Assembly: GCF_003334385.1 (NCBI RefSeq) | Contig: NZ_QOWN01000009.1 | Length of the DNA: 64,000 bases | Strand: one strand, 5' to 3' | From: Escherichia coli | GTDB taxonomy: Bacteria > Pseudomonadota > Gammaproteobacteria > Enterobacterales > Enterobacteriaceae | Part shown: piece by piece, positions 60,581 through 61,339 of the stretch | Layout of the letters: each line of letters opens with the position of its first letter | Position numbering within the stretch: the first letter of the stretch is position 1 | The notes under the pieces: model-generated | What the model was told of the DNA's origin: nothing | What the model saw: the letters and a program-made list of their open reading frames with translations, nothing else | The model's database searches: none | Position numbers and translations under genes: made by a program

Positions 60581-61339
60581 ATGAAACAAACACAACGTCA
60601 CAACGGTATTATCGAACTGGTTAAACAGCAGGGTTATGTCAGTACCGAAGAGCTGGTAGAGCATTTCTCCGTCAGCCCGCAGACTATTCGCCGCGACCTC
60701 AATGAGCTGGCGGAGCAAAACCTGATCCTGCGCCATCATGGCGGTGCGGCGCTGCCTTCCAGTTCGGTTAACACGCCGTGGCACGATCGCAAGGCCACCC
60801 AGACCGAAGAAAAAGAGCGCATCGCCCGCAAAGTGGCGGAGCAAATCCCCAATGGCTCGACGCTGTTTATCGATATCGGCACCACGCCGGAAGCGGTAGC
60901 GCACGCACTGCTCAATCACAGCAATTTGCGCATTGTCACCAACAATCTCAACGTTGCTAACACGTTGATGGTAAAAGAAGATTTTCGCATCATTCTCGCC
61001 GGTGGCGAATTACGCAGCCGCGATGGCGGGATCATTGGCGAAGCGACGCTCGATTTTATCTCCCAGTTCCGCCTTGATTTCGGCATTCTGGGGATAAGCG
61101 GCATCGATAGCGACGGCTCGCTGCTGGAGTTCGATTACCACGAAGTTCGCACCAAACGCGCCATTATTGAGAACTCGCGCCACGTTATGCTGGTTGTCGA
61201 TCACTCGAAATTTGGCCGTAACGCGATGGTCAATATGGGCAGCATCAGCATGGTAGATGCCGTCTACACCGACGCCCCGCCGCCAGTAAGCGTGATGCAG
61301 GTGCTGACGGACCACCATATTCAACTGGAGCTGTGCTGA
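60581..61339 (+). CDS. glpR: DeoR-family glycerol-3-phosphate regulon repressor GlpR (intact)
   Basis: 252 aa ORF MKQTQRHNGIIELVKQQGYVSTEELVEHFSVSPQTIRRDLNEL... with N-terminal HTH. Confidence 0.95.
   Translation: MKQTQRHNGIIELVKQQGYVSTEELVEHFSVSPQTIRRDLNELAEQNLILRHHGGAALPSSSVNTPWHDRKATQTEEKERIARKVAEQIPNGSTLFIDIGTTPEAVAHALLNHSNLRIVTNNLNVANTLMVKEDFRIILAGGELRSRDGGIIGEATLDFISQFRLDFGILGISGIDSDGSLLEFDYHEVRTKRAIIENSRHVMLVVDHSKFGRNAMVNMGSISMVDAVYTDAPPPVSVMQVLTDHHIQLELC

Follow-up and report, generated by a model that had tools for sequence, protein, structure and literature searches.

Intact glpR and IS1-free yrhA in a 64-kb stretch of Escherichia coli DNA closely related to, and distinct from, the MG1655 reference

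The stretch of Escherichia coli DNA analysed here (64,000 nucleotides, hereafter the window) carries an intact glpR and a yrhA free of IS1, and it almost certainly comes from a natural E. coli that is very close to K-12, stands outside the K-12 laboratory lineage and has the ancestral form of both loci, which we consider the best explanation of the data. On this account glpR and yrhA would have kept their wild-type state, the 1-bp deletion in glpR would be a derived laboratory mutation confined mainly to the MG1655 stock that was sequenced and strains descended from it, and the IS1E insertion in yrhA, carried by the K-12 strains examined, would be derived as well. The strain's own decay event is a 10-bp deletion in rtcR, through which the induction of rtcBA would have been lost.

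Comparison with the MG1655 reference at glpR and yrhA

The whole window was aligned with positions 3,550,000-3,626,000 of MG1655 (NC_000913.3) and the accompanying annotation. It corresponds to the reverse complement of MG1655 3,621,962-3,557,177, with which it is collinear at 99.93% identity, the order and content of genes being the same from rhsB to rtcB. The differences consist, in total, of 31 SNPs, 17 of them scattered and 14 crowded into 240 bp of rhsB (window 1578-1818), and of three indels: MG1655 has IS1E with a 9-bp target duplication in yrhA, a 1-bp deletion in glpR and an intact rtcR, whereas the window has an empty site in yrhA, a complete glpR and an rtcR that is 10 bp shorter. 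The preliminary description of this DNA had proposed that it is not reference MG1655, a proposal that identity across glpR and yrhA would have contradicted; the alignment supports it, as identity breaks precisely at both loci and, in addition, at the 31 SNPs. The features discussed below are collected in Table 1.

Table 1. Position and description of the features discussed in the text (window coordinates)
Feature	Position	Strand	Description
yrhB	36920..37204	-	Mapped from the MG1655 annotation; same as MG1655
yrhD	37404..37559	-	Mapped from the MG1655 annotation; same as MG1655
yrhA	37654..38148	-	Intact, 164 aa; NCBIfam YrhA family NF038335, 120 bits
Empty IS1E target site	37759..37767		One copy of TTTAATGTC; two blast HSPs overlap by 9 bp
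yhhZ	38145..39323	-	Protein with Hcp-like N-terminal domain, 392 aa; identical to that of 300709
glpD	57668..59173	-	Divergent GlpR-regulated target gene; S116C, common to SCU-104
18-bp near-palindrome ATGTTCGATAACGAACAT	59207..59224		34 bp upstream of the glpD ATG; candidate GlpR operator
glpE and glpG	59363..60564	+	First two genes of the glpEGR operon, preceding glpR; position taken from the MG1655 annotation
glpR	60581..61339	+	252 aa and stop; intact DeoR-family repressor of the glp (glycerol-3-phosphate) regulon
Base C absent from MG1655 glpR	60731	+	TGATCCTGCGCCATCAT in the window, TGATCCTG-GCCATCAT in MG1655 (alignment)
rtcR pseudogene	61321..62909	-	10-bp deletion; frame shifts after codon 326 of 532
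rtcR deletion junction	61930..61931		Other genomes, MG1655 included, have GTTCCGGCGA (window plus strand)
Sigma-54 -24/-12 promoter match TGGCACGACGGTTGCA	63044..63059	+	Upstream of rtcB (start 63098)

The claim that glpR encodes a full-length protein here is borne out by its open reading frame, by a match to the NCBIfam equivalog NF008154 that covers residues 1-252 of 252 (552.8 bits against a cut-off of 331) and by the Pfam domains HTH_DeoR (residues 6-61, 4e-26) and DeoRC (residues 74-231, 9e-56). The protein is identical to GlpR of the isolate 300709 (WP_000815099.1), an accession that is also annotated in W3110 and SCU-104. The gene context is that of GlpR, with glpE-glpG-glpR (59363-61339, plus strand) divergent from glpD and with an operator-like palindrome at glpD, and neither the full-length equivalog match, nor the domain composition, nor the third position in glpEGR, nor the palindrome distinguishes this GlpR from the standard one. 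GlpG carries A60V, and the 3' end of glpR overlaps that of the convergent rtcR by 19 bp. The palindrome is an exact match (0.03 expected by chance) to the GlpR operator consensus reportedly given by Zhao et al. 1994. Judged from sequence and gene order, GlpR and at least one predicted target site are in place. Knowledge of the family together with the sequence suggests that the strain makes a working GlpR, which would bind operators such as the one preceding glpD (59207-59224), keeping the glp regulon repressed until the repressor is released by glycerol-3-phosphate; release of E. coli GlpR from DNA by sn-glycerol-3-phosphate is described in literature cited by PMC7567609. The sequenced stock MG1655(Seq) would have lost this control of the regulon.

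The lesion itself, which the preliminary description had ascribed to the MG1655 reference, is real: the reference gene (b3423) is annotated as a 758-bp pseudogene in NC_000913.3 and lacks the one base present at window 60731. When translated, it leaves the GlpR frame beyond residue 50 and meets a stop at codon 105, in agreement with the entry 'FS 51/105' given for MG1655 glpR in PMC10044804. The marker of the MG1655(Seq) stock, namely the 1-bp deletion in glpR codon 51 (U00096.3/NC_000913.3), is thus absent from the window.

The second claim concerned the yhhZ-yrhA-yrhD-yrhB locus (36920-39323), which lies about 23 kb upstream of glpR, the gene by whose coordinates alone both claims had been located. 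In MG1655, yrhA is split into two annotated fragments by a 768-bp IS1E (3583428-3584195) along with a duplicate of the 9-bp TTTAATGTC. The window has an intact yrhA of 164 aa and a single TTTAATGTC at a clean empty site. The rest of the window gave no alignment to the IS1E stretch of MG1655, and the locus is indeed without IS1. The marker of the K-12 laboratory lineage, IS1E in yrhA flanked by the TTTAATGTC duplication, is accordingly missing.

How much weight the two loci can bear depends on how common the lesions are, and short junction probes for both were searched against all 5,426 complete E. coli RefSeq genomes. The MG1655-type glpR allele was matched exactly in about 40 of them, nearly all MG1655 stocks or laboratory derivatives, and about 5,000 other complete genomes have the extra base. 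According to EcoCyc, the MG1655 finally sequenced is set apart from other stocks of the strain by inactivating mutations in crl, glpR and gatC (PMC5210515); glpR is intact in the MG1655 kept by one laboratory (PMC9189660), and JM83, JM109 and XL1-Blue are glpR+ (PMC11148124). Since the lesion is found in so few genomes, and since W3110 and other K-12 strains are glpR+, an intact glpR is nearly uninformative by itself and excludes little beyond one stock of one strain. The IS1E/yrhA junction was found in 379 of the 5,426 genomes, and those inspected are K-12 laboratory strains; likewise, the K-12 strains among the megablast matches listed all align in two pieces at yrhA, as they would if split by IS1E. 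W3110 (NC_007779.1) has IS1 in yrhA but an intact GlpR annotated as WP_000815099.1. An IS1-free yrhA thus excludes the K-12 laboratory lineage, and the combination of intact glpR and intact yrhA is the ordinary wild-type condition of the species.

Nearest relatives and alternative origins

A megablast search of the 5,426 complete genomes returned none identical to the window, the best matches (about 6-9 mismatches per 25 kb) being K-12 strains and a few wild isolates, namely 300709, VR50, LD27-1, USMARC-51408 and SCU-104. Two of these, 300709 (NZ_CP025903.1, from human stool in Mozambique) and SCU-104 (NZ_CP053284.1, from a healthy student in California), differ from the full window by 33 and 21 SNPs, respectively, and both have an intact rtcR; together with VR50 they share with the window its intact glpR, its IS1-free yrhA and its collinearity. 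SCU-104 also has the rhsB patch, NikE S143R and GlpD S116C. The window is without MLST or Clermont markers, and judging from these nearest neighbours the strain probably belongs to phylogroup A and is ST10-like.

When the window was compared jointly with MG1655, 300709 and SCU-104, private SNPs numbered seven in MG1655, nine in 300709 and seven in the window, a star-like pattern with similar branch lengths such as would be expected for separate natural lineages. At the seven MG1655-only positions (4805, 5674, 24098, 30315, 32690, 33925 and 62223) the window agrees with 300709 and SCU-104 throughout, and therefore lacks the MG1655 alleles that would place it in the K-12 laboratory lineage. The positions private to the window are 23797, 33769, 37727, 38781, 46043, 48928 and 59912. 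Four of these changes are synonymous (in panZ, ugpC, yhhZ and glgB) and three are non-synonymous, namely YrhA G141D (likewise a difference from 300709), YhgN M25L and GlpG A60V.

A search for the lineage itself, by exact-protein look-up in Logan and the NCBI assemblies, led to contig LYBI01000068.1 of the draft GCA_002190145.1, which is 100.000% identical to the window over 35522-64000, the stretch compared, and shares with it the rtcR 10-bp deletion, GlpG A60V and YhgN M25L; the draft contig, unlike the window, would end at about window 2670, inside rhsB, so that the window would belong to a more contiguous assembly of this strain or of one nearly identical to it. Contigs from the runs ERR271226, SRR1815429 and SRR10357324 are 100% identical over the 6-13 kb that they cover, and SRR3823653, which also has YhgN M25L, is 100% identical over the part covered. 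A 100% match over window 1-35521 was sought through NikE S143R (219 blocks) and YrhA G141D (1,233 blocks), both of which proved too common for this purpose, the contigs returned differing from the window by 2-55 SNPs.

These comparisons also bear on the other origins that might be considered. A derivative of K-12, from which IS1E had been precisely excised and in which glpR is the non-mutant K-12 allele, would account for the 99.93% identity to MG1655 and for the intact glpR, given that many K-12 strains are glpR+, and the clean empty site by itself looks the same as a precise excision. We regard such an origin as highly improbable, because the window is without the seven MG1655-private alleles and differs equally from W3110 over 21548-64000, and because its seven own SNPs and the 14-SNP rhsB patch far exceed the differences among K-12 strains. 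Moreover, the listed K-12 strains are all split in two at yrhA, W3110 has IS1 there, and the last 28.5 kb are identical to GCA_002190145.1, with the same variants recurring in other runs and drafts.

It is no more credible that errors of sequencing or assembly in a K-12-like sequence account for the private SNPs and the deletion in rtcR. What might suggest so is that the deletion occurs in 0 of the 5,426 complete genomes and that an exact 24-mer across its junction had zero matches when genome_contigs and metagenome_contigs were scanned. Both the deletion and the SNPs are, however, found at 100% identity in GCA_002190145.1, ERR271226, SRR1815429 and SRR10357324, with YhgN M25L in SRR3823653 as well; the loss of 10 bp is untypical of base-calling, and the states of glpR and yrhA are the same as in thousands of genomes. 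Least probable of all, to the point of being negligible, is an origin in E. coli B (BL21/REL606) or in another of the standard laboratory references with both genes intact. BL21(DE3) does have an intact glpR and an IS1-free yrhA, but its identity to the window amounts to no more than 98.78% over a stretch of 57 kb, with 677 mismatches, and to 97.7% in the final 6.6 kb; a further block of ~2.8 kb, absent from the window, also lies between its glpD and glgP.

A natural relative of K-12 with ancestral glpR and yrhA therefore remains by far the preferred reading. The comparison with MG1655, W3110 (over 21548-64000) and BL21 that had been called for was thus carried out, and the window matches none of them; with no IS1E, none of the seven MG1655 alleles and a greater distance still to BL21, the suggestion of a lineage other than reference MG1655 is upheld. 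The further suggestion, that this is a less decayed version of the region, holds in part only: it is true of glpR and yrhA, which are intact, but not of rtcR, in which the window has a 10-bp frameshift of its own.

Several observations on sequence variation may be added in their own right. YhgN M25L is rare (8 contigs), whereas YrhA G141D is often encountered outside this lineage (1,233 blocks), and such a mixture of rare and common private variants suggests a mosaic origin of the 37-60 kb stretch. As five of the seven private SNPs are C-to-T on the plus strand, mutagenesis or DNA damage was considered as their source; this reading was dropped as unsupported because of the small sample (two-sided p ~0.06), the ratio of four synonymous to three non-synonymous changes, and the recurrence of the alleles in independent isolates. 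The patch of 14 SNPs in 240 bp of rhsB (codons 318-398, window 1578-1818) sets the window apart from both MG1655 and 300709 and is common to SCU-104. Six of the SNPs are non-synonymous, and five lie in codons 328-331. The patch looks like gene conversion; K-12 rhsA was rejected as its donor, having the MG1655 rhsB bases at 14 of 14 positions.

The intergenic regions offer two further observations. Three repeats of about 115 bp, with ~84% mutual identity, lie between livJ and panZ (23463-23579), livF and ugpB (29288-29404) and glgP and glpD (57499-57605), and probably belong to a known class of intergenic repeat. The interval between glpD and glgP is occupied in BL21(DE3) by a block of ~2.8 kb (NC_012971.2, 3424031-3427159) in which two genes of the PstS family and one hypothetical gene are found, whereas the window and K-12 have only a yzgL remnant there, which makes it another decay or indel polymorphism.

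The rtcR deletion and what the window means for the reference annotation

The 10-bp deletion leaves rtcR as an open reading frame of 436 codons, ending in a 110-residue out-of-frame tail, and a separate one of 202 codons. The RtcR model NF038308 is correspondingly split, its positions 1-324 and 328-529 being matched with 535.9 and 282.1 bits, respectively, against a cut-off of 650. As there is no single frame of about 530 aa that reaches 650 bits, the gene is a pseudogene in the window. What the truncation removes from this sigma-54 activator is the distal AAA+ region together with its C-terminal DNA-binding domain. Because RtcR is truncated, rtcBA should no longer be inducible, although the match to a sigma-54 promoter upstream of rtcB is intact.

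Five contigs, independently assembled from separate sequencing runs, encode precisely the 436-aa product, and the DNA is found in GCA_002190145.1 as well. Sister assemblies with GlpG A60V (GCA_016667765.1 and ERR3330132) retain the 10 bp, and it follows that the deletion is recent and derived. About one tenth of the complete genomes are without a full match to the glpR-rtcR-rtcB block, and we regard the deletion as ordinary pseudogene formation in a dispensable gene. W3110, which differs from the window by a K-12-like level of SNPs and by IS1 in yrhA, has an intact rtcR.

Two observations concern rtcR and sigma-54 promoters more generally. At window 62223, in codon 229 of rtcR, MG1655 has Leu (TTA) in place of the Phe (TTC) shared by the window, 300709 and SCU-104, the Leu being private to MG1655 among the genomes compared. 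Another exact match to the sigma-54 -24/-12 promoter, TGGCACAGTTGTTGCT, is present at 21124-21139, 41 bp upstream of the rpoH start codon (21180), and is presumably the known sigma-54-dependent rpoH promoter.

The glpR frameshift and the yrhA IS1E insertion are already documented as peculiarities of the reference strain, and GlpR is a textbook repressor; the sole item that is unreported is an rtcR allele peculiar to a small clade of wild strains. The stronger notion, that the rtcR frameshift marks a small circulating near-K-12 clade that has lost inducible Rtc RNA repair, is a doubtful one for which we hold out little expectation. Should the loss of rtcR be adaptive rather than neutral decay, it would offer a natural experiment on the purpose of Rtc in the gut.

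For the rest, the value of the finding is one of provenance only, in that the window represents a wild relative of K-12 and not the MG1655 reference. Thus, the glpR and yrhA 'pseudogenes' of the reference annotation should be seen as accidents of the laboratory lineage and not as features of the species, and where the annotation or regulatory models of MG1655, such as those of the glp regulon and of Rtc, are transferred to this strain, an active GlpR and an inactive RtcR would be expected.
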